Virus record (IMG/VR): IMGVR_UViG_3300042139_000023
DNA: 64,000 nt
Direction: 5' to 3' (one strand)
From: a virus
Lineage: Duplodnaviria > Caudoviricetes
Position 1 is the first letter of the stretch. Each line of letters starts with the position of its first letter. Below, in pieces: positions 2,180-13,587 of this stretch. The notes beneath the pieces are model-generated. The model did not search any database. It had not been told where the DNA came from and saw only the letters and a list, made by a program, of their open reading frames with translations. A program made the translations under genes and the position numbers.

Positions 2180-2189
2180 GGCCTAGGCC
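2180..2189. promoter_or_regulatory. GGCCTAGGCC palindrome, putative GntR operator
   Basis: Perfect 10-bp palindrome just upstream of the RBS of 2206; same motif recurs at other promoters. Confidence 0.6.
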
Positions 2190-4598: not shown

Positions 4599-6047
4599 AT
4601 GGCGATCCGCGTGAAGGTCCCGCAGGCAGCGGGAATCAGGCAGTCGATGGAGGTCCAGAACGGCTCCAAGGGCCTGGGCAGGATGTTCCGCAGGGGGCTG
4701 CACGGAAGCAAGAACTGGGTGCTGGAGCTGGACGAGAACGGCGAGCACCGCTCGGTGTGGGCCAAGGGTGGCCGGGCGTTCATCGTGCTCATCCCGGTCT
4801 GGGTGGTCCTGAGTGCGGCGACCGGCGGCCCGGAGCGGGGCGGCCACTCGACGAGCGTTCCGCAGGCGCTCGGCGCGGCTCTCCTTCTCACGGTGATCGG
4901 GCTGGCGGTGTTCTCCGCGCGTGAGCGGAAGCTGGGCCGCGAAGAGCCGTGGGTCACCGAGGGAGGCGACTCCAAGGGGATCACGGAAAGTGAGGATGGC
5001 GAGAACAAGACGCTCGTCGACCCCGCGCCGGAGAACTCCACGCAGATCCTCGAAAACCCGCAGGTCGAAGAGTCGGGTTCCGACGATGGGGCCGAACAGG
5101 AGATGGACGATTCGGAAGATTCGGTCGAAACCGAGCGATTCGAACAGCCGGATTTGCAGGAGCCGGTGCAGCAGGCCATTCCGTCCGAGGCGGAAACCCG
5201 CGTCATGACTGCGCCGGAGGCACCCACGACGGTGTTGCCGCAGGTCGTGCAGCAGGCCACTTCTGATGTCGCAGACCAGGACAAGTCGGGCCAGTCGTTC
5301 GAGGACATCGCCTCGGTGGCGAACGACTTTCGGACCGAAGCCTCGCAGCAGGCCAGTCAGGAACCGGCATATTCCCTGGTCAAGGACTCTGCGCCCGACA
5401 TGCAGGAGCCCGTGCAGCAGGCCACTCCCCAGTGGACGAAGCTGGACGTTTCCGGCGTCACCGAGGGTGATAACGGACTCATCCCTGACGAGCCCACCAC
5501 GCCCTTGCGGACCACCGTGCAGACGGCCTTGCACCAGAACCCCGATGCAAGCGAATCCGTGCAGGTCAGCCTGGAGAAGGAGCCCGTGCAGCAACCCTTG
5601 CAGGGGGAGTTGCAGGTCCAGTTCGCCCAGGCTGGGCCCTACCCGGCCGGGGAAGAGCCGGAGCACGAGGACTGGTGGGTGGTGGCACCCGACATCGAGC
5701 CCGCAGCGGAGGCGGAGGAAGTCGCCCTGGAGCCCGTTCAGGAAGATGTCGCGCCCGAGCCCGTCCCCGTCTTCGCGGAGGCCGCAGAAGCGGAGCAGGA
5801 GGCGTCTCAGGTTCCGGTCGGCCGTCACCCGATGGTCGTGCTCACCTACCTCGCCTCCCAGGCCCCGAAGTCCGGCTTCACGCCCGAGGAGAAGGAGGCG
5901 GCTCGCACGGCTGTCATCACGTGGCTGCACGGGGAGATCCAGCAGGGACACCTGAACCGCGCCGAAGGCGCTCGTGTTCTCGGCGTGGACGCCTCCACGG
6001 TCGGTCGCTGGCTGAGCGACCTGAACGACGACCCCTGGGCCGGGTGA
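4599..6047 (+). CDS. Membrane-anchored protein with acidic low-complexity linker and C-terminal HTH
   Basis: ATG 4599 with RBS AGGAGG; two hydrophobic segments near the N-terminus; C-terminal LNRAEGARVLGVDASTVGRWL. Confidence 0.75.
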   Translation: MAIRVKVPQAAGIRQSMEVQNGSKGLGRMFRRGLHGSKNWVLELDENGEHRSVWAKGGRAFIVLIPVWVVLSAATGGPERGGHSTSVPQALGAALLLTVIGLAVFSARERKLGREEPWVTEGGDSKGITESEDGENKTLVDPAPENSTQILENPQVEESGSDDGAEQEMDDSEDSVETERFEQPDLQEPVQQAIPSEAETRVMTAPEAPTTVLPQVVQQATSDVADQDKSGQSFEDIASVANDFRTEASQQASQEPAYSLVKDSAPDMQEPVQQATPQWTKLDVSGVTEGDNGLIPDEPTTPLRTTVQTALHQNPDASESVQVSLEKEPVQQPLQGELQVQFAQAGPYPAGEEPEHEDWWVVAPDIEPAAEAEEVALEPVQEDVAPEPVPVFAEAAEAEQEASQVPVGRHPMVVLTYLASQAPKSGFTPEEKEAARTAVITWLHGEIQQGHLNRAEGARVLGVDASTVGRWLSDLNDDPWAG

Positions 6048-6071
6048 CCAGGCCACACGAAATGGCCTACT

Positions 6072-6107
6072 CGAAGGGCCGCCAGACGATGTTCTGGCGG
6101 CCCTTCG
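6072..6107. terminator. 15-bp perfect hairpin, probable terminator
   Basis: CGAAGGGCCGCCAGA / TCTGGCGGCCCTTCG. Confidence 0.65.
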
Positions 6108-6150
6108 CCGTACGCTGATGCCCGACACGGATCACTGGAAAGGTGATGGC

Positions 6151-6582
6151 ATGAGCGAGAACGCCTACGACCGCAGCGCGCTGGGCCACGAGGCAGGAAA
6201 GCTGCTGGACGCCCTCCTGAAGCATGTGAACGAGATCGGGCGGGCCCAGGTGGCAACATCCGCCCTCCTGAAGGACAGCGGACTGACCCAGGGTGCCCTG
6301 GTGCGCGCCAGGGCGGAACTCACCCGGAACGGGCTGCTGCGAACGGAGCCGGGCTTCTCCTCTACCGGGCTGCGCGGGGCGAACGTCTACGTGCTGAACA
6401 TGACCGCGATCGAGCCCCCTTCCAAGGAGATTCTGGAAGACGAAACCGGACGAATCGAGGCAGACGATCCCGATGGTGCTGGTCACCAGGTTTCCGGAGA
6501 GGTTCCTGCCCCTTCCGGGCGGCATCGCAGCGAGCGGAAGGGCTTCCTTCGTGGCCTCTTCCGTGGGTCTCGTTCTTCCTGA
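6151..6582 (+). CDS. Winged-helix DNA-binding protein
   Basis: SALLKDSGLTQGALVRARAELTRNGLLRTE..ANVYVL pattern typical of wHTH domains. Confidence 0.65.
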   Translation: MSENAYDRSALGHEAGKLLDALLKHVNEIGRAQVATSALLKDSGLTQGALVRARAELTRNGLLRTEPGFSSTGLRGANVYVLNMTAIEPPSKEILEDETGRIEADDPDGAGHQVSGEVPAPSGRHRSERKGFLRGLFRGSRSS

Positions 6583-6750
6583 AGCACGGAAGGACTGCCG
6601 CCCTGTCGGAAGAAGCCGAAGAAGAGGTGGTTGTTCTCCACTCGAATCGGACGAATGAGGACACGACGGGGCGGCAGTTCGTGGCACGCTTCTCGAATCG
6701 CAGTGAATTCGGACAGAACGGACGACTTCCAGGATCCTGCCCTGGTTCGC

Positions 6751-6780
6751 TTGACACGGCCTAGGCCACGCTGGCACAGT
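6751..6780 (+). promoter_or_regulatory. Promoter of the spdB-like gene with GGCCTAGGCC operator in the spacer
   Basis: TTGACA (6751-6756), N18, CACAGT (6775-6780); palindrome at 6758-6767. Confidence 0.7.
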
Positions 6781-6845
6781 CATGCGTAACGCCCCCAAGC
6801 GAGGTTTCAGAAACCGGGGGTTTTCGGAAAGGGAGAAACCCAGAC

Positions 6846-8006
6846 ATGGACAAGACGGAAAACAACGAGAAGGTCGCGAAGGTCGACATCGACGAGGACG
6901 GTCCGAAGCGTTTCTCCGTTCTGGTTCTGATGGCGAGCATCCTCTCGATCGGCTCCCTCGCCTGGAGTACCTGGTCCTTCATCGACCTGTACAAGGTCGA
7001 CGCGCTCACCATCGACAAGCTGGGCGGGCTCAGCCTGATCTCCCTCTCGGCCGCCGCAACGATGGACGTCGTCTGGAGCGCGACGATGGTGGCCCAGTAC
7101 CAGGGCCAGAAGCTGATGGGGAAGCTGCCGAAGGTCAAGAAGTCCTTCGACTTCCTCCCGCTCATCGGGTGGATCGAGGCCCTGTTCGTCGCCGGACTGC
7201 TCGGCTACCACGGAACGACGATCGGCGGCGGCGCCGCAGGGTTCGCGGCGGTCCTCCCGGTCTTCACGAAGCTCACGTGGACGATGGCCCTGAACGGCCT
7301 GAAGGACCCGAGCGAACTGACCGACGAGGAGAAGGCCGAGATGGCGGCCGAGAAGCGGAAGTCGAAGCTCACCCGGGCCAAGGCCGACGCAACCCAGGAG
7401 CAGCATGCGGCCGACATGATCCTGAAGAACCGCGAGCACGAGGCGGCCCTGGCCGAGCAGCGGCGCCTGGCGGCCATCGAGCACGAGAAGGTCCAGGCCG
7501 AGATCGAGCGCAAGAAGCTGGAGCAGCAGGCCCAGTTCGAGCTGGAGAAGGCCCGGCTGGAGGGTGAGGCCGAGACCAAGCTGATGCGTCAGCAGCTCAA
7601 CGCGCGGCTCCAGATCGAGACCCTGCGCAGCCAGCAGGGCATCAGCCTGGAGCGCATGGACGCCGAGCAGGAGCTGCGCCTGCGGGCCCCGCTGGACCTC
7701 GGCTTCAACGTCATCCAGGGGCAGGTCTCCCGGCCGCAGCTCGCGAAGAGCAACGTCTCGTTCGAGGAGGAGGACGACGCGGAGGGCATCAGCCTGGACG
7801 GCCTGAACCTGACCGACGCCGAGCGCCGGAAGGTGAACCTGGCGGCCCGCTACTACGCCGCCGACGCGGCCGAGGGCGGCATCACCAAGGCCGCCTTCGC
7901 GAAGGCCAACCAGACGGGCGCCCCCCGGGTGACCGAGGCGACCACCGCCTTCCCGCTGGAGTGGTTCGTCGAGAACGGTCTCGCGAGCTGGATGAACCAG
8001 GGCTGA
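6846..8006 (+). CDS. spdB: SpdB-like plasmid spread protein (about four TM helices plus coiled coil)
   Basis: SLAWSTWSFIDL, DVVWSATMVAQYQG, PLIGW...LLGYHG, LPVFTKLTWTMAL and DPSELTDEE match the recalled pattern of Streptomyces plasmid SpdB proteins; long Glu/Gln/Arg coiled coil follows. Confidence 0.72.
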   Translation: MDKTENNEKVAKVDIDEDGPKRFSVLVLMASILSIGSLAWSTWSFIDLYKVDALTIDKLGGLSLISLSAAATMDVVWSATMVAQYQGQKLMGKLPKVKKSFDFLPLIGWIEALFVAGLLGYHGTTIGGGAAGFAAVLPVFTKLTWTMALNGLKDPSELTDEEKAEMAAEKRKSKLTRAKADATQEQHAADMILKNREHEAALAEQRRLAAIEHEKVQAEIERKKLEQQAQFELEKARLEGEAETKLMRQQLNARLQIETLRSQQGISLERMDAEQELRLRAPLDLGFNVIQGQVSRPQLAKSNVSFEEEDDAEGISLDGLNLTDAERRKVNLAARYYAADAAEGGITKAAFAKANQTGAPRVTEATTAFPLEWFVENGLASWMNQG

Positions 8007-8023
8007 CAAGCCCGCACGACAGA

Positions 8024-8056
8024 GAAGCCCCCGCCCCGGCGGGGGCTTCCTGTTTT
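8024..8056 (+). terminator. Intrinsic terminator
   Basis: GAAGCCCCCGCC / GGCGGGGGCTTC stem followed by CTGTTTT. Confidence 0.75.
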
Positions 8057-8105
8057 CCCCAACTTGCCTGTATTCTGGTTATGTTGAAGTGGAGAGGAGA
8101 ATGAC

Positions 8106-8420
8106 ATGGCGTGGCGAATCGAGGCATCCGGAGGAACCGGATCCGCCAATTACGTTGTGATCCAGCCGATGATGGACGACGACCCGGAGAGCGAAGTCCG
8201 GCACGCGCTCATCACCATCTCGCCGAAGGGCGGTCGCGAGCACCCGACGATTCCGATGCTTCCGCCGGGCGCCCTGTACCGGGATCGGCTCGGTATGGCG
8301 TATCGCATTCAGGAGGCAACCATCGTCGAGACAGGAACCGACGACGGTGAACACTCCATGTGGCGCTACGAGTACCTGGTCGCCTACAGCGCGACCCTTC
8401 CGCTCCGGCCCGTCTCATGA
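8106..8420 (+). CDS. Hypothetical protein
   Basis: ATG with RBS GAGGAG; 104 aa. Confidence 0.7.
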   Translation: MAWRIEASGGTGSANYVVIQPMMDDDPESEVRHALITISPKGGREHPTIPMLPPGALYRDRLGMAYRIQEATIVETGTDDGEHSMWRYEYLVAYSATLPLRPVS

Positions 8421-8626
8421 TGGAGAAGGTCGTCACCTGGGCCATCGCGAAGGCGGTCGAAGATGTTGACGACAGCGTGACCACGGCTGCCCTGATGGGC
8501 GCCGCACTGGATACCGCCACCTTCTCGGCGATCGGCGTACCGGCGACCGGGGCTGTGATCGCAGGGGCCGCCACGGGCGTGGGCCTGAACGTGGTACGCA
8601 AGCTGAGGAAGGGAGAAGGGGAATGA
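8417..8626 (+). CDS. Small Gly/Ala-rich membrane protein
   Basis: ATGA overlap; hydrophobic AIGVPATGAVIAGAATGVGL segment. Confidence 0.6.
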   Translation: MMEKVVTWAIAKAVEDVDDSVTTAALMGAALDTATFSAIGVPATGAVIAGAATGVGLNVVRKLRKGEGE

Positions 8627-9282
8627 CCGACTGGTGGAACACGTCCGCGCCGCGACAGGAGGGCGAGCCGGTTCGCGCTGAACCCGCTATCGGGTGGGAC
8701 CCGGAACCCATGCCGTCGATGCCCGCCTCTCCGCCCGAGCCTCCGGCCCAGCAGGAGGAGCCGGAAGCGCAGAAGCCGGATCGCCGCAAGAGCCTTCTCC
8801 TCGGTGCGGCCGGTGCTGCCGCCGTGGGGGTCCTGGTTTTCACCGTCATGCCGCACGACGGCTCGACTCCGGCCGACGTTCCCGGTGTGTCCGCATCATC
8901 GTCCGTCGGGGACTTCCCCCCTGCGGCCGGTGGCGGGCCCTCGGAAGGTGCACAGGACCGCGCTGAAGAATCCCGGGCACCCGCCCCGCAGAAGCCGAAG
9001 GTGGTCACCCTCTCTGCCACACCCAGTGGCTCCGGCAGCGTCGGCGCGATCGTGAAGCTGACGGTCGTGAACAACACCGACGAGGCCGTGGTCGTCATGT
9101 CGTCGATGGTGAAGGGTGACGGCCGCCCGGCGGTCATCGGAGAGGGCACGCTGGCGCCCGGCTCCCGGCGCGTAGAGCCCGGAGAGACGGCGACCGGAAC
9201 CGTGGAGTTCGCCACGAAGAAGGCGCCCGCCCAGGTGGCTCTCGTCGACCTCAGCGGGAACGTGGTGGCGGCCAGTGGCTGA
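8623..9282 (+). CDS. Single-pass membrane protein with extracellular Ig-like (DUF4352-like) domain
   Basis: TM segment LLLGAAGAAAVGVLVFTVM; C-terminal beta-rich VKLTVVNNT...VEPGETATGTVEF. Confidence 0.65.
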   Translation: MTDWWNTSAPRQEGEPVRAEPAIGWDPEPMPSMPASPPEPPAQQEEPEAQKPDRRKSLLLGAAGAAAVGVLVFTVMPHDGSTPADVPGVSASSSVGDFPPAAGGGPSEGAQDRAEESRAPAPQKPKVVTLSATPSGSGSVGAIVKLTVVNNTDEAVVVMSSMVKGDGRPAVIGEGTLAPGSRRVEPGETATGTVEFATKKAPAQVALVDLSGNVVAASG

Positions 9283-10054: not shown

Positions 10055-10789
10055 TCACAGGGGCACGTGGAACGAGACCGGCCTGTTGCCCTCGCAGACC
10101 TTCACGGCGACCTCGACGACCTTGCCGTTGGCCAGGAGGACCCGACGCGCCGTCTGCGTGACGATCGCGTACGCGCCCTTCAGTTCCAGCAGCTCCCGCT
10201 CCCGGTCCGTCGCCAGACGCGACGTGATGACGGGGATCAGGTCCTTCTGCCGGGAGCCCATGCGTTCGGCCGCCAGCTCCCGCGAACCGCGCGGGGTGGA
10301 CTCGGCCATCGCCAGCTCGGGCGTCACGGCCGTCACCTCGGGCGGGTAGTACGAGTGTCCGGTGGCGACCGGCTTGCCGTCGATCTTGTTCAGGCGCTCC
10401 CGGTACACGACCCCCTCGCCGGGCTCGACGCCCAGCGCGGAAGCGATGCTGGCCGGGCACGGCACCGTCTCCACCCGCAGGATCTCCGAGGTCTCTCGGG
10501 CGCCCAGCGCCTTGCCGCTCGCCGCGTAGTTCCCGACGCGGTCCTGGACCGTCGCCGTGCGTCCCGAGATGTCCGCCACGACCGGCGGCCGGTTGCCGCT
10601 GGACGGCTCCAGGACCCCTTCCGCCGTCAGCAGCTCCACGACCTTGTCGATGGTGACGCGCGACGTCTTGTGGGTCTTGGCGAGCCTGCGGCGCGACTCC
10701 AGCGGGGTACCCGGCGCCAGATCACCAGAGGTGATCCTGGATCGGTAATGTGCCGCAATGGCACGGTACTTGGGAATCTGCTCGCTCAC
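10055..10789 (-). CDS. GntR-family (HutC/UTRA) repressor, KorA/KorSA/TraR type
   Basis: GTG 10789 with RBS GAGGAG; PKYRAIAAHYRSRITSGDLAPGTPLESRRRLAKTHKTSRVTIDK wHTH plus UTRA motifs (VVYRERL, SYYP, RLATDRERELL). Confidence 0.9.
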   Translation of the reverse strand: MSEQIPKYRAIAAHYRSRITSGDLAPGTPLESRRRLAKTHKTSRVTIDKVVELLTAEGVLEPSSGNRPPVVADISGRTATVQDRVGNYAASGKALGARETSEILRVETVPCPASIASALGVEPGEGVVYRERLNKIDGKPVATGHSYYPPEVTAVTPELAMAESTPRGSRELAAERMGSRQKDLIPVITSRLATDRERELLELKGAYAIVTQTARRVLLANGKVVEVAVKVCEGNRPVSFHVPL

Positions 10790-10808
10790 TTTTTCTCCTC
10801 GCGTTCGC

Positions 10809-10837
10809 TTGTGGCCTAGGCCGTATTGTGTCATGCT
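10809..10837. promoter_or_regulatory. Divergent promoter region with GGCCTAGGCC operator (10813-10822)
   Basis: Palindrome 24 bp upstream of the gntR start; possible rightward TTGTGG-N17-CATGCT promoter overlaps it. Confidence 0.65.
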
Positions 10838-11056: not shown

Positions 11057-12019
11057 GTGGCGACGAAGGCAGCCATTCCGCCGAAGCCGAAGACGGCCCC
11101 CACCGTGCACCTCAAGGGCCAGAAGCGGAAGCCGCCACGGACCCTGAAGGGCGACCTCAAGGCACTGAAGGGGAAGCTCGGTTCGGCCACCACTCGGTGG
11201 ACCGAGAGTCAGGGCAAGGCGGAAGAGAAGAAGGAGAAGGTACGCCAGGAGGCCGAGAAGATCCTGGCCCCCGTCAAGGAAAAGGCCGCAGAGGAGAAGA
11301 AGCTCGCGGCCGAAGTGATGAAGCCCGTTCAGGCGGCTGCCGCCGCCATCAAGAACGGGTTGGATCCGGCCAACGGAAAGACCCGGCCGTACGTCACTTC
11401 GTTCATGATCTCCTCGGTGATGTCGTGGGCTGTCGGACCGCAGATTCTGACCGCTCTGTACGAGCGAATCCGCTTCGGCACCTCGACCACCGGATGGGGA
11501 ATCCTGAACGGCCCTGGCAGGTGGTTCAGGGACACGATCGGCATGGCGTACGAGTCGGACCGGCTCGGCAGCCTGATCTGGGCAGCGATCATGGGGCTCA
11601 CCCCCATGATCCTGATGTTCACCCGGAACCAGGTCGCCGGATACCTGGCCCAGAGCACGTACCGGGGGCGGATGGTCGCCTTCAGCATCAAGTGGCTGAC
11701 CCGTTCGGCCTGGCTGGTTCCGGTCCTGTTCTTCGTGGGGGTCTCGTACCCCGACGAGGTGACGGCGATCTTCGGTTCGCCGTGGACCTTCCAGATGTGG
11801 CAGTTCTGGGTCGCCGGTCTGTTCTGCATGGCGTTCTACGCGACCATGTGGGTCTTCGACCGGATCGAACGGCTCAACCGCGAGCGGTCGGCCATGTCGG
11901 AGGAGGAGCGCGAGAAGTCCCAGAGCATGGGGCCGGGCATCTTCCACGCCGTACTCATGATCCCGCTGGCGTCGATCGTCACGGGGATCCTGCTCTACGC
12001 ACCGGGCGCCGCCTGGTGA
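11057..12019 (+). CDS. Integral membrane protein with Lys/Ala-rich cytoplasmic N-terminus
   Basis: RBS GAAGGAG; several hydrophobic helices in the C-terminal two thirds. Confidence 0.8.
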   Translation: MATKAAIPPKPKTAPTVHLKGQKRKPPRTLKGDLKALKGKLGSATTRWTESQGKAEEKKEKVRQEAEKILAPVKEKAAEEKKLAAEVMKPVQAAAAAIKNGLDPANGKTRPYVTSFMISSVMSWAVGPQILTALYERIRFGTSTTGWGILNGPGRWFRDTIGMAYESDRLGSLIWAAIMGLTPMILMFTRNQVAGYLAQSTYRGRMVAFSIKWLTRSAWLVPVLFFVGVSYPDEVTAIFGSPWTFQMWQFWVAGLFCMAFYATMWVFDRIERLNRERSAMSEEEREKSQSMGPGIFHAVLMIPLASIVTGILLYAPGAAW

Positions 12020-12244
12020 TGCACAAGGGCCTCCGCTGCCGTGTGGCAGCCCAGCTACCGCTGGAAGCCGGTTCGCATCCGGCCGGAGGTACGAAGCGGA
12101 CGAACGAGCCGCTTGGAAAGGGGACGAGTCGTGTTCCAGAAGGACGACGACCTCGACGGGCTGCCGGTACTGAAGCCCGCCGGTCCCGGCCGGTGAGTCT
12201 GTGGGGCCGCTGGAGGGCGGCCCCACAGGGAAGGTGAGGGAAAA

Positions 12245-12823
12245 GTGATTCTGGCACTCACGCAGCAGCAGCAGATCGAGGTTCCGGAGAATTCGTGGAT
12301 CGGTCACACCACGATGGCAGGCTTCGGAATCATCCTGCTGGTGCTCTCGTTCCTCTGCATCAAGGGGAACAAGAAGGGTCAGCAGATGTTCCTCTGGGGC
12401 GGGCTGACCAAGGCGCTGATGACCAAGGCCGTGCAGCAGCCGACCAGCCGCATGATGACGAAGGTCCACGGAGGTCCGAGCGAAGGGTTCGACTGGCGGT
12501 CCGCAATGACATTCCTCGTGGGAATGTGGGCCATGACGTCGATCGTCAGCTCGACCGGTGGGTTCGTCGTCGACCTGGTCGACTGGTTCCAGGGTCTGGT
12601 CATGGCGCTGGCCGACTGGCCGGTCCTGTCCGACATCGGAGCCGGAGGCATCTGCCTCTTCCTCGGGTTCCTCGCGATGCGGAACAAGGATGACGACAAG
12701 CAGGATCTGATGTACGGCGCCATCTGCGGGTTCTTCTTCCCGCTCGGCGGCGGCACCTGGGCCGAGATCACACTCCAGATCGGCAACTGGATCCCGCAGC
12801 TCATGCAGAGCCCGTTCCACTGA
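12245..12823 (+). CDS. Multi-pass membrane protein
   Basis: At least four hydrophobic segments; RBS GAGGGA. Confidence 0.75.
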   Translation: MILALTQQQQIEVPENSWIGHTTMAGFGIILLVLSFLCIKGNKKGQQMFLWGGLTKALMTKAVQQPTSRMMTKVHGGPSEGFDWRSAMTFLVGMWAMTSIVSSTGGFVVDLVDWFQGLVMALADWPVLSDIGAGGICLFLGFLAMRNKDDDKQDLMYGAICGFFFPLGGGTWAEITLQIGNWIPQLMQSPFH

Positions 12824-12896: not shown

Positions 12897-12926
12897 TTGT
12901 TGGCTGGCCTAGGTCAATGTTAGAGT
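12897..12926 (+). promoter_or_regulatory. HrdB-type promoter of the cell-wall hydrolase operon with GGCCTAGGTC in the spacer
   Basis: TTGTTG (12897-12902), N18, TAGAGT (12921-12926); operator variant at 12906-12915. Confidence 0.7.
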
Positions 12927-12948
12927 GGAGCCCGGAGAAGGGAGGAAC

Positions 12949-13587
12949 GTGATGCGCAGGGCAGGCGGAGTATTCGTCGGCGTGTTTCTGGCAGTTGGGG
13001 CAGTTCAGGCCGTCACCGGTTTCATTCCGGCGGTCCCGTCTGCCGCGTCCGTCGCGGCGCCTCCGAAGCAGGAGGCCACCGGGGACTACAAGTTCACGGG
13101 CACCTCTGCCCCGATCCGGCCCGGCTCGGTCCCGAAGAAGCGCTGGGAAGAGCTGATCAACAAGTGGGGCAACAAGTGCAAGACGTTGACCCCCGCCCTC
13201 CTGGCGGCCCAGCTCGATCAGGAGAGCATGGGATTCAAGCCTGAAGTCATCGACGGACGACTGGACTCCCCGGCCTCCGCCAAGGGCATGGCCCAGTTCA
13301 TCGACGGCACGTGGGCCACCGAGGGGATCGACGCAAACGGGGACGGCAAGCGCAACAAGTACGACCCCGAGGACGCCATCCCCTCGGCCGCGACGCTGGA
13401 CTGCAAGCTCGCGAACGGCCTGAAGGACATACCTGGCCCCACCTGGAAGAACATGCTCGCCGGATACAACGCGGGCGGCTTCCGGGTGAAGCAGTACAAC
13501 GGCGTCCCGCCGTGCTCGTTCGCCAGGTGCGAGACCTACAACTACGTGAAGTTCATCGAGCGGAAGACGAGGAAGTACGAGCAGTGA
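12949..13587 (+). CDS. Secreted lytic transglycosylase (SLT)
   Basis: N-terminal hydrophobic/signal segment; LLAAQLDQES (catalytic Glu), AKGMAQF..GTW, YDPEDAI, AGYNAG, ETYNYV motifs. Confidence 0.9.
   Translation: MMRRAGGVFVGVFLAVGAVQAVTGFIPAVPSAASVAAPPKQEATGDYKFTGTSAPIRPGSVPKKRWEELINKWGNKCKTLTPALLAAQLDQESMGFKPEVIDGRLDSPASAKGMAQFIDGTWATEGIDANGDGKRNKYDPEDAIPSAATLDCKLANGLKDIPGPTWKNMLAGYNAGGFRVKQYNGVPPCSFARCETYNYVKFIERKTRKYEQ

Follow-up and report, generated by a model that had tools for sequence, protein, structure and literature searches.

A stand-alone gene of a cluster-BM Streptomyces phage encodes a probable, remote member of the plasmid SpdB family

Here we describe a single gene of a cluster-BM Streptomyces phage, encoding a 386-residue membrane protein (P0001), and its probable kinship to the SpdB 'spread' proteins of Streptomyces plasmids. 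The gene lies in a 64,000-nucleotide stretch of the IMG/VR record IMGVR_UViG_3300042139_000023 (hereafter the window, meaning this whole stretch, numbered from its first nucleotide); the viral record containing it is 168 kb long, and at the DNA level the window shares 88% identity with Streptomyces phage Frankenweenie and about 75% with Satis, Kradal, JustBecause and Kela. Cluster-BM phages are siphophages with prolate heads and genomes of 184-200 kb, and have been described as being without an integrase and without a repressor (PMC6687918, PMC10652959). The Frankenweenie counterpart of P0001, gp114, is 90% identical to it and annotated only as 'membrane protein'; the N-terminus of P0001 is kept in 35 of 35 aligned relatives, and among the phage collection a tblastn search with a plasmid relative of the gene reaches only the seven BM phages. 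Around the gene (Table 1) are found a promoter, a ribosome-binding site and a terminator, a palindrome that recurs across the genome and, 2 kb downstream and in convergent orientation, a gene for a GntR/HutC regulator.

Table 1. Features of the SpdB-like gene, its regulatory sites and associated genes. Positions are those of the window except for the last row. TM, transmembrane; HTH, helix-turn-helix; ORF, open reading frame; pLDDT, predicted local distance difference test.
Feature	Position	Strand	Basis
-35 hexamer TTGACA	6751..6756	+	read from sequence; invariant in 4 phages
Perfect palindrome GGCCTAGGCC, candidate GntR/HutC operator in the 18-nt promoter spacer	6758..6767	n/a	
-10 hexamer CACAGT (CAGAGT in Satis), 18 nt past the -35	6775..6780	+	sequence; 4-phage alignment
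Ribosome-binding site AAGGGAG (core GGGAG, 10 nt upstream of start)	6829..6835	+	read from sequence
Coding sequence of the 386-residue SpdB-family protein P0001	6846..8006	+	ORF and translation
Four-TM SpdB_N-type domain, residues 22-151	6909..7298	+	hydropathy, AlphaFold2, profiles
One long charged cytoplasmic helix, residues 160-278 (119 residues)	7323..7679	+	AlphaFold2
Small helical HTH-like C-terminal domain, phage-family-specific, residues 324-386	7815..8003	+	domain model, pLDDT 85
Intrinsic-terminator-like hairpin (8024-8049) and T run	8024..8056	+	11-bp stem, 9 G-C pairs
GntR/HutC (GntR + UTRA) regulator gene, ORF open up to 10927	10055..10795	-	Pfam
Palindrome GGCCTAGGCC in divergent gntR/small-ORF promoter region	10813..10822	n/a	conserved in 4 phages
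Palindrome GGCCTAGGCC after TAGGAT (-10-like hexamer), upstream of ORF 2206-2673	2180..2189	n/a	exact in 3 phages
Variant GGCCTAGGTC between TTGTTG and TAGAGT, upstream of SLT lytic transglycosylase gene	12906..12915	n/a	conserved in 4 phages
Tra/TraB-like translocase gene, about 20 kb upstream of the SpdB-like gene (window orientation)	G000:C1:145863-147164 (= L011:838-2139:-)		

The sequence-only reading of this locus had proposed about four TM helices and a coiled coil of roughly 120 residues. The first of these stands: hydropathy yields four hydrophobic segments in P0001 (residues 23-41, 59-82, 101-119 and 125-149), and AlphaFold2 likewise models four TM helices (25-48, 64-85, 104-126 and 129-151). 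Lysine and arginine residues are concentrated in the N-terminal tail and in loop 2 (five each, against two in loop 1), and by the positive-inside rule both termini are therefore predicted to face the cytoplasm. The proposed coiled coil fares less well. A charged helix of the expected length is indeed modelled, uninterrupted and with a pLDDT above 90 at its centre, but it carries none of the periodicity that a coiled coil would show: the 3.5-residue hydrophobic repeat is absent (Fourier power about 0, p 0.97 against shuffles), and no heptad register is consistent along the helix, each heptad position holding 2-4 Leu, Ile, Val, Met or Phe residues of 17, in a test that leaves room for short local registers. 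Salt bridges between residues i and i+4 are not in excess either. In profile alignment (hhalign), this helix matches the plasmid family discussed below at both of its ends, with an insertion of about 80 residues between them. An acidic, disordered segment (residues 277-314) precedes the small C-terminal domain, whose fold finds matches that are nearly all DNA-binding HTH proteins (DeoR, TetR, sigma region 4, ParB, KorB, GerE and Trp repressor). A profile of this domain, run against 1.84 billion representative proteins, matches just 17 clusters, in every case at the C-terminal end of proteins of 330-395 residues; against PDB sequences and Pfam it matches nothing meaningful. As modelled, the domain probably contacts DNA.

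The kinship of P0001 to SpdB becomes visible through plasmid-borne intermediates. By tblastn, residues 20-194 are 33-37% identical to hypothetical proteins of 85-93-kb Streptomyces plasmids, including pSAM1 of S. ambofaciens and an S. platensis plasmid (NZ_CP108975), which are the nearest non-phage relatives and share the TM domain and the start of the helix. The phage-family profile aligns to the profile of these plasmid proteins with a probability of 99.9% (hhalign, E 1.8e-32), and the plasmid-family profile aligns in turn to that of the true pIJ101 SpdB family with a probability of 96% (E 3.7e-9). The alignment register is identical in all three pairwise comparisons of phage, plasmid and SpdB profiles, and the motifs common to all of them fall in TM2, TM3 and TM4, together with an LT motif after TM4. 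Furthermore, a hidden Markov model (HMM) seeded on true pIJ101 SpdB and extended with plasmid proteins only matches residues 22-212 of P0001 (E 8.7e-28, 92 bits) and recovers 42 of 42 phage relatives, while shuffled and reversed controls score at most 8.4 bits. Precomputed Pfam 38.1 annotation places SpdB_N (PF27080) on pIJ101 SpdB and all of the plasmid relatives listed, as well as on 8 of the 41 phage-family clusters (the family names SpdB_N and HTH_SpdB_C are taken from the Atlas). In a structure search, pIJ101 SpdB (P22408) ranks first of 550,129 Swiss-Prot models in an end-to-end alignment, the match itself being weak (E 0.044, probability 0.85). Eleven residues are invariant across the phage, plasmid and SpdB groups (Ala30, Ser37, Asp74, Trp77, Gly108, Trp109, His122, Pro138, Trp145, Leu158 and Arg270), among which Asp74, Trp77, Gly108-Trp109, His122, Pro138 and Trp145 are conserved positions of the membrane domain.

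Compared with pIJ101 SpdB (PF27080 plus PF27079), then, P0001 has the same four-TM N-terminal domain with common Asp, Trp, Gly-Trp, His, Pro and Trp positions, followed by a cytoplasmic helical region and a small helical C-terminal domain in a structure that is collinear over its whole length. It differs in its helix, which is about 80 residues longer, and in a C-terminal domain that is not recognisably HTH_SpdB_C. Several results weigh against the kinship. P0001 has no direct match among the Pfam, PHROG and NCBIfam models searched, a set that did not include SpdB_N itself, the direct alignment of phage-family and SpdB profiles is not significant (hhalign probability 6%, E 0.006), and an HMM built on SpdB alone fails to reach P0001. 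HTH_SpdB_C (PF27079) is not recognisable in P0001, whose C-terminal domain aligns to the SpdB family with a probability of only 0.5%. The HTH matches of that domain also score too low to establish kinship (VIA-align Z at most 5.4, short of the score at which true kinship can be told from a common helical arrangement; Foldseek E above 0.9), and neither the whole model nor the C-terminal domain has a Foldseek match in the PDB at E below 0.001. BLASTP of P0001 against pIJ101 SpdB and tblastn of pIJ101 SpdB against the phage collection likewise gave nothing significant. Identity between SpdB and P0001 is about 19%, and their homology is therefore detectable only through intermediates. The C-terminal domain may be analogous to HTH_SpdB_C, or homologous to it beyond detection. 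The matching membrane domain, set beside the family-specific C-terminal domain and the lengthened helix, therefore supports P0001, if only remotely, as an SpdB-family member through its four-TM N-terminal domain alone, so that 'SpdB-like', as the gene was first labelled, is apt for the N-terminal domain, by way of the plasmid proteins.

Other family assignments were tried and set aside: ABC_export, EdmS and TrbI appeared only as sub-threshold noise in the Pfam, PHROGs and NCBIfam scans, and DUF2637 (PF10935) had no match at E of 1 or below in P0001 or in a six-frame search of the genome. Putative homologues of SpdB2, the four-TM oligomeric spread protein of plasmid pSVH1, which we compare by description, have been noted in actinophages phiC31 and VWB, with a proposed help in phage DNA spreading (Thoma et al. 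2015, PMC4447253). Neither phage was reached by our tblastn searches of the phage collection with pIJ101 SpdB or with a plasmid relative.

The plasmid intermediates themselves sit among DNA-transfer genes. Their locus has a divergent GntR gene on one side, an ATPase annotated as an FtsK-type or type IV secretion system-type DNA-transfer protein on the other, and kilB nearby, which is the classic kor/tra/spd layout; in one of these plasmids (L002), the transfer ATPase has a strong FtsK-gamma match. The plasmid proteins are unlike P0001 in having a shorter helix and other C-termini, some of them bearing the winged HTH PF13412, and their gene comes about eighth in its operon, which diverges from gntR, with the FtsK-type translocase gene further downstream. 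Among the proteins of the plasmid tra/spd locus, only the SpdB-like protein and GntR have clear matches in the window, the one other match being marginal (E 0.004), and the identity of the phage GntR to its counterpart on the very plasmids that hold the nearest SpdB-like genes is 40%. In both pSAM1 (L003 15703-16360) and the L002 plasmid, a gene annotated as terminase adjoins the transfer region. These 85-93-kb plasmids, which carry the nearest SpdB-like and GntR genes, also fall into the size class of the plasmid-phage pZL12 and of pSLE1, which raises the possibility that phage-plasmids and BM phages exchange the SpdB-GntR pair. Conjugal transfer of pZL12 reportedly requires a tra gene and two genes beside it.

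Turning to expression, the SpdB-like gene forms a conserved unit of its own, as had been proposed. The promoter block, about 55 nt long, is invariant across four aligned phages, while the intergenic DNA 30-100 nt upstream of it has diverged past easy alignment. The expectation of a near-consensus promoter is borne out only in its -35 hexamer, which is the consensus, and not in its -10, which agrees with the Streptomyces hexamer TAGAGT at only four of six positions; a scan for E. coli-type (TATAAT-based) promoters detected none. Downstream, a strong hairpin is found at the equivalent place in all four phages, with differing stem sequences and energies of -25 to -53 kcal/mol, and in an Rfam search the terminator region had only sub-threshold matches, driven by this hairpin. 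Invariant promoter block and terminator hairpin together thus define a conserved monocistronic unit, and the terminator first read from the window alone is confirmed. A potential hairpin in the 5' untranslated region (6790-6822) folds no better than shuffled sequences (z 0.08), and for this reason we claim no attenuator. Soil metatranscriptome contigs identical to the window, drawn from three studies, are confined within 5500-9100 to positions 6796-7943, limits that fit a transcript start near 6787 as weak evidence. They are, however, contigs only, from runs picked for holding the stretch and possibly containing contaminating DNA, all of which tells against leaning on them, and parts of the stretch without RNA contigs are no evidence of silence; run X17 and most of X19 gave only relatives about 90% alike or unrelated pieces. 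Two further conserved blocks flank the unit. At 6630-6680, within an otherwise diverged 263-nt spacer upstream of the promoter, about 45 nt (TTCTCCACTCGAATCGGACGAAT ... GGGGCGGCAGTTC) are kept in four phages and have no Rfam match; this block may be a remnant, or may serve as a binding site or encode a small RNA. At 8058-8100, between the terminator and the next gene (8106-8420), lies a second (CCCAACTT..TGTATTCTGGTTGTGTTGA), which we regard as a gene-specific promoter-like element and not as a shared motif because TGTATTCTGG is present only once in the genome.

The regulator gene downstream encodes a protein with Pfam matches to GntR (4e-7, 30 bits) and UTRA (7.6e-16, 58.6 bits), both above their cut-offs, and with similarity to DasR (E 1.8e-8). 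A candidate operator for it is the palindrome in the spacer of the SpdB-like promoter. GGCCTAGGCC or a one-base variant of it is kept in four phages at four places of the window, upstream of a DprA-like gene, the spdB-like gene, the gntR/small-ORF pair and the SLT lytic transglycosylase gene. At the first of these the Satis site reads GACCTAGGCC, and the gene that follows is annotated as DprA-like in Frankenweenie and JustBecause and as hypothetical in Satis. More loosely, the motif GGCCTAGG[CT]C or G[AG]CCTAGGCC occurs at no fewer than 15 genomic sites, almost every one of them lying a short way ahead of a gene (window positions 2180, 6758, 10813, 12906 and 26216); of these sites, at least 11 fall in non-coding DNA, which by a crude gene call makes up roughly 19% of the total (P about 6e-6). 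Measured against the idealised DasR/NagR dre palindrome, GGCCTAGGCC agrees at eight of the ten positions and carries a single symmetric change, at -3/+3. The two share a 10-bp core of the form GG-N-CTAG-N-CC with guanines at -5 and -4, as well as a regulator built from a GntR winged HTH and a UTRA effector domain; they differ at -3/+3, where the phage palindrome has C and G and dre has T and A. The NagR arginines that read G-5 and G-4 (PMC4333415) are kept in the phage GntR when it is aligned with DasR.

Because the sequence is dre-like, a site lies in gntR's own promoter region and the base-reading arginines are conserved, we link the two and suggest that the phage GntR probably binds the palindrome, whose sites would make up a candidate phage-wide regulon of at least 15 members with a dre-like operator. 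An operator particular to the SpdB-like gene had first been proposed; a perfect, conserved palindrome is there, but it is not private to this gene. Similarly, the proposal that a GntR repressor keeps the gene silent gains a GntR/HutC gene of the KorA/TraR kind 2 kb away, which makes repression plausible. It is rather unlikely, though the matter deserves weighing, that a regulator other than GntR binds the palindrome, or that it is a promoter or leader element of one temporal class to which GntR is unrelated. Such a role would accommodate the number of promoters that carry the motif, often directly after the -10, the further HTH proteins that the phage encodes, and the plasmid GntR-spd intergenic regions, in which GGCCTAGGCC is absent and other repeats are found instead, a point that also counts against our assignment. 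So does the genome-wide tally of the exact palindrome, six against five for a reversed control and hence no excess, which is why the operator case rests on position and conservation. On the other hand, the motif is placed now within the spacer, now across the -35 and now immediately past the -10, as is expected of an operator and not of a promoter element, a site is present in the gntR promoter region in four of four phages, the motif resembles a HutC-type dre palindrome, and the base-reading arginines are retained.

Beyond the window, a six-frame search of the genome identified a 433-residue Tra/TraB-like translocase of the FtsK family. Residues 187-526 of pIJ101 Tra (KilA/TraB) align to it over 356 residues at 31% identity (E 2e-45); it has a Walker-A ATPase and a C-terminal winged helix and is without the first 186 residues of Tra. 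An 'FtsK-like DNA translocase' is annotated in seven of seven BM phages, the same seven that bear the SpdB-like gene, and the SpdB-like, GntR and Tra-like genes co-occur in every BM phage examined. In this the phage resembles pIJ101, which also has a KorA-type GntR regulator and a Tra translocase in the same genome. The arrangement is different: pIJ101 spdB belongs to a tra-spdA-spdB-kilB operon, whereas the phage gene is monocistronic in a lytic phage of about 170-200 kb, its convergent GntR gene departs from the divergent KorA/TraR layout, and two features speak against a shared transfer unit, namely the distance between the SpdB-like gene and the translocase, with no tra/spd operon joining them, and the lack of a palindrome upstream of the Tra-like operon.

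Taking these observations together, we propose, with a probability of roughly 0.6, that P0001 is a phage representative of the SpdB family of plasmid spread proteins, acting as a membrane-anchored DNA-handling or channel component. P0001 would be an inner-membrane protein whose four-helix SpdB_N-type domain leaves both termini in the cytoplasm, where the charged helix, the acidic linker and the HTH-like domain would follow one another, so that a membrane-embedded partner might present a DNA-binding head on a long cytoplasmic stalk. From its own host-type promoter a single-gene transcript would be made, ending at the hairpin terminator. A repressor seated on the dre-like spacer palindrome could block RNA polymerase; the most likely candidate is the phage's own GntR/HutC protein, which would control the other such sites as well and might release them on binding a small ligand, the protein being made only then. 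In plasmids, TraB pumps double-stranded DNA (dsDNA) and SpdB-type proteins are needed for spread through the recipient mycelium (PMC4447253). SpdB2 of pSVH1 forms oligomers and unstable pores, binds peptidoglycan as well as dsDNA and is co-purified with TraB, and SpdB3 of the same plasmid is toxic in E. coli, with a GntR repressor holding the system down (PMC4447253). Oligomerisation, dsDNA binding, pores, a need for the protein in pock formation, and toxicity are thus known for pSVH1 SpdB2/SpdB3 only, distant relatives of P0001, and a pore-forming activity or a role in spreading is what we would infer by analogy for the phage protein.

By that analogy, P0001, as a membrane component derived from plasmid transfer machinery, and the Tra/TraB-like dsDNA translocase might help phage DNA across hyphal cross-walls. 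We hold spreading proper, in which P0001 would form a channel and dock the anchor-less Tra-like ATPase to carry phage DNA over septa, only tentatively. Bolder still, and unlikely on present evidence, is the notion that a virulent phage of 170-200 kb possesses the plasmid dsDNA-transfer apparatus in a minimal and divided form, under a ligand-responsive GntR/HutC regulon. Here the ATPase, having lost its N-terminal region, would dock on the SpdB-family membrane protein, phage genomes would be pumped over cross-walls to spread within the mycelium free of virions, and the regulon of at least 15 promoters might sense the state of the host, for example through wall-derived amino sugars.

Other functions can be imagined for the same protein. 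One is a membrane tether for phage DNA that is being replicated, packaged or partitioned, with no transfer across septa. Such a tether would fit the architecture, in which a long spacer helix joins a membrane anchor to an HTH-like domain in the cytoplasm; however, the conservation of Asp74, His122 and three Trp residues across phage, plasmid and SpdB membrane domains exceeds what a simple anchor needs, and a TraB-like pump co-occurs in seven of seven phages, which makes a mere tether distinctly unlikely. Slightly less probable again is a holin-like permeabiliser or timer of lysis, whose late membrane lesions would free wall hydrolases or collapse the membrane potential and which would have no part in DNA transfer. 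In E. coli, SpdB2 gives T7 lysozyme access to the wall, an experiment that amounts to a holin assay (PMC4447253), the same palindrome precedes the SLT lytic transglycosylase gene, and the lysis cassette is only about 7 kb off. Yet Frankenweenie already has an annotated holin beside its endolysin, neither a 119-residue cytoplasmic helix nor an HTH-like domain is a feature of holins, and the plasmid relatives work in DNA-transfer loci. Exclusion, in which P0001 would block the entry of DNA from other phages or conjugative plasmids by occupying or poisoning a host- or plasmid-side transfer apparatus, would suit a lone gene expressed outside any transfer operon and a protein that has only its membrane domain in common with Spd proteins, its C-terminal domain being different. 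We consider it improbable to a marked degree: BM phages, described as having neither integrase nor repressor (PMC10652959), are not expected to enter the long-term residence in which exclusion pays. Finally, that the resemblance to SpdB is convergent, a matter of hydrophobic-helix composition shared by an unrelated four-TM protein, would explain the low identity and the non-significant direct comparisons with pIJ101 SpdB but is very hard to credit given controls so far below the score of P0001, a single register with shared TM2, TM3, TM4 and LT motifs in three profile alignments, the first rank of SpdB among structural models and intermediates that lie in tra/spd loci.

The hyphae of Streptomyces are divided into compartments, and little is understood of the way in which a phage infection moves through the mycelium. 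Plasmids achieve hyphal spread with TraB and Spd proteins; in a cluster of lytic phages that can be cultured, a well-conserved SpdB-family gene occurs together with a Tra-like pump and a KorA-like regulator, which makes the idea that phages have borrowed plasmid machinery to move DNA along hyphae a testable one. To our knowledge, nobody has tested the idea of Thoma et al. that phage homologues of SpdB2 spread phage DNA. S. lividans or related strains serve as hosts for Satis, JustBecause, Kradal and others, so that deletion, localisation and interaction experiments are directly feasible in these relatives. Three aspects of the locus are new: a subfamily that joins SpdB_N to an expanded helix and a private HTH-like domain; a stand-alone regulated unit for an SpdB-family gene, as a member of a 15-site dre-like regulon; and the co-occurrence of that gene and a truncated Tra-like pump in BM phages, which are lytic and culturable. 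The dre-like palindrome, for its part, would give a large actinophage a defined regulon for the ligand-controlled timing of its genes.

Two observations concern the annotation of neighbouring genes. In Frankenweenie, a tRNA-Sec(tca) is annotated after the membrane-protein gene (L001 13036-13108); ARAGORN found no tRNA at the equivalent place in the window (11800-12400). The ORF at 12925-13587, which follows the variant palindrome, matches the Pfam SLT lytic transglycosylase family (E 4.7e-9), and its apparent positional counterpart in Frankenweenie is annotated as 'glycosyltransferase', which would be a mis-annotation.

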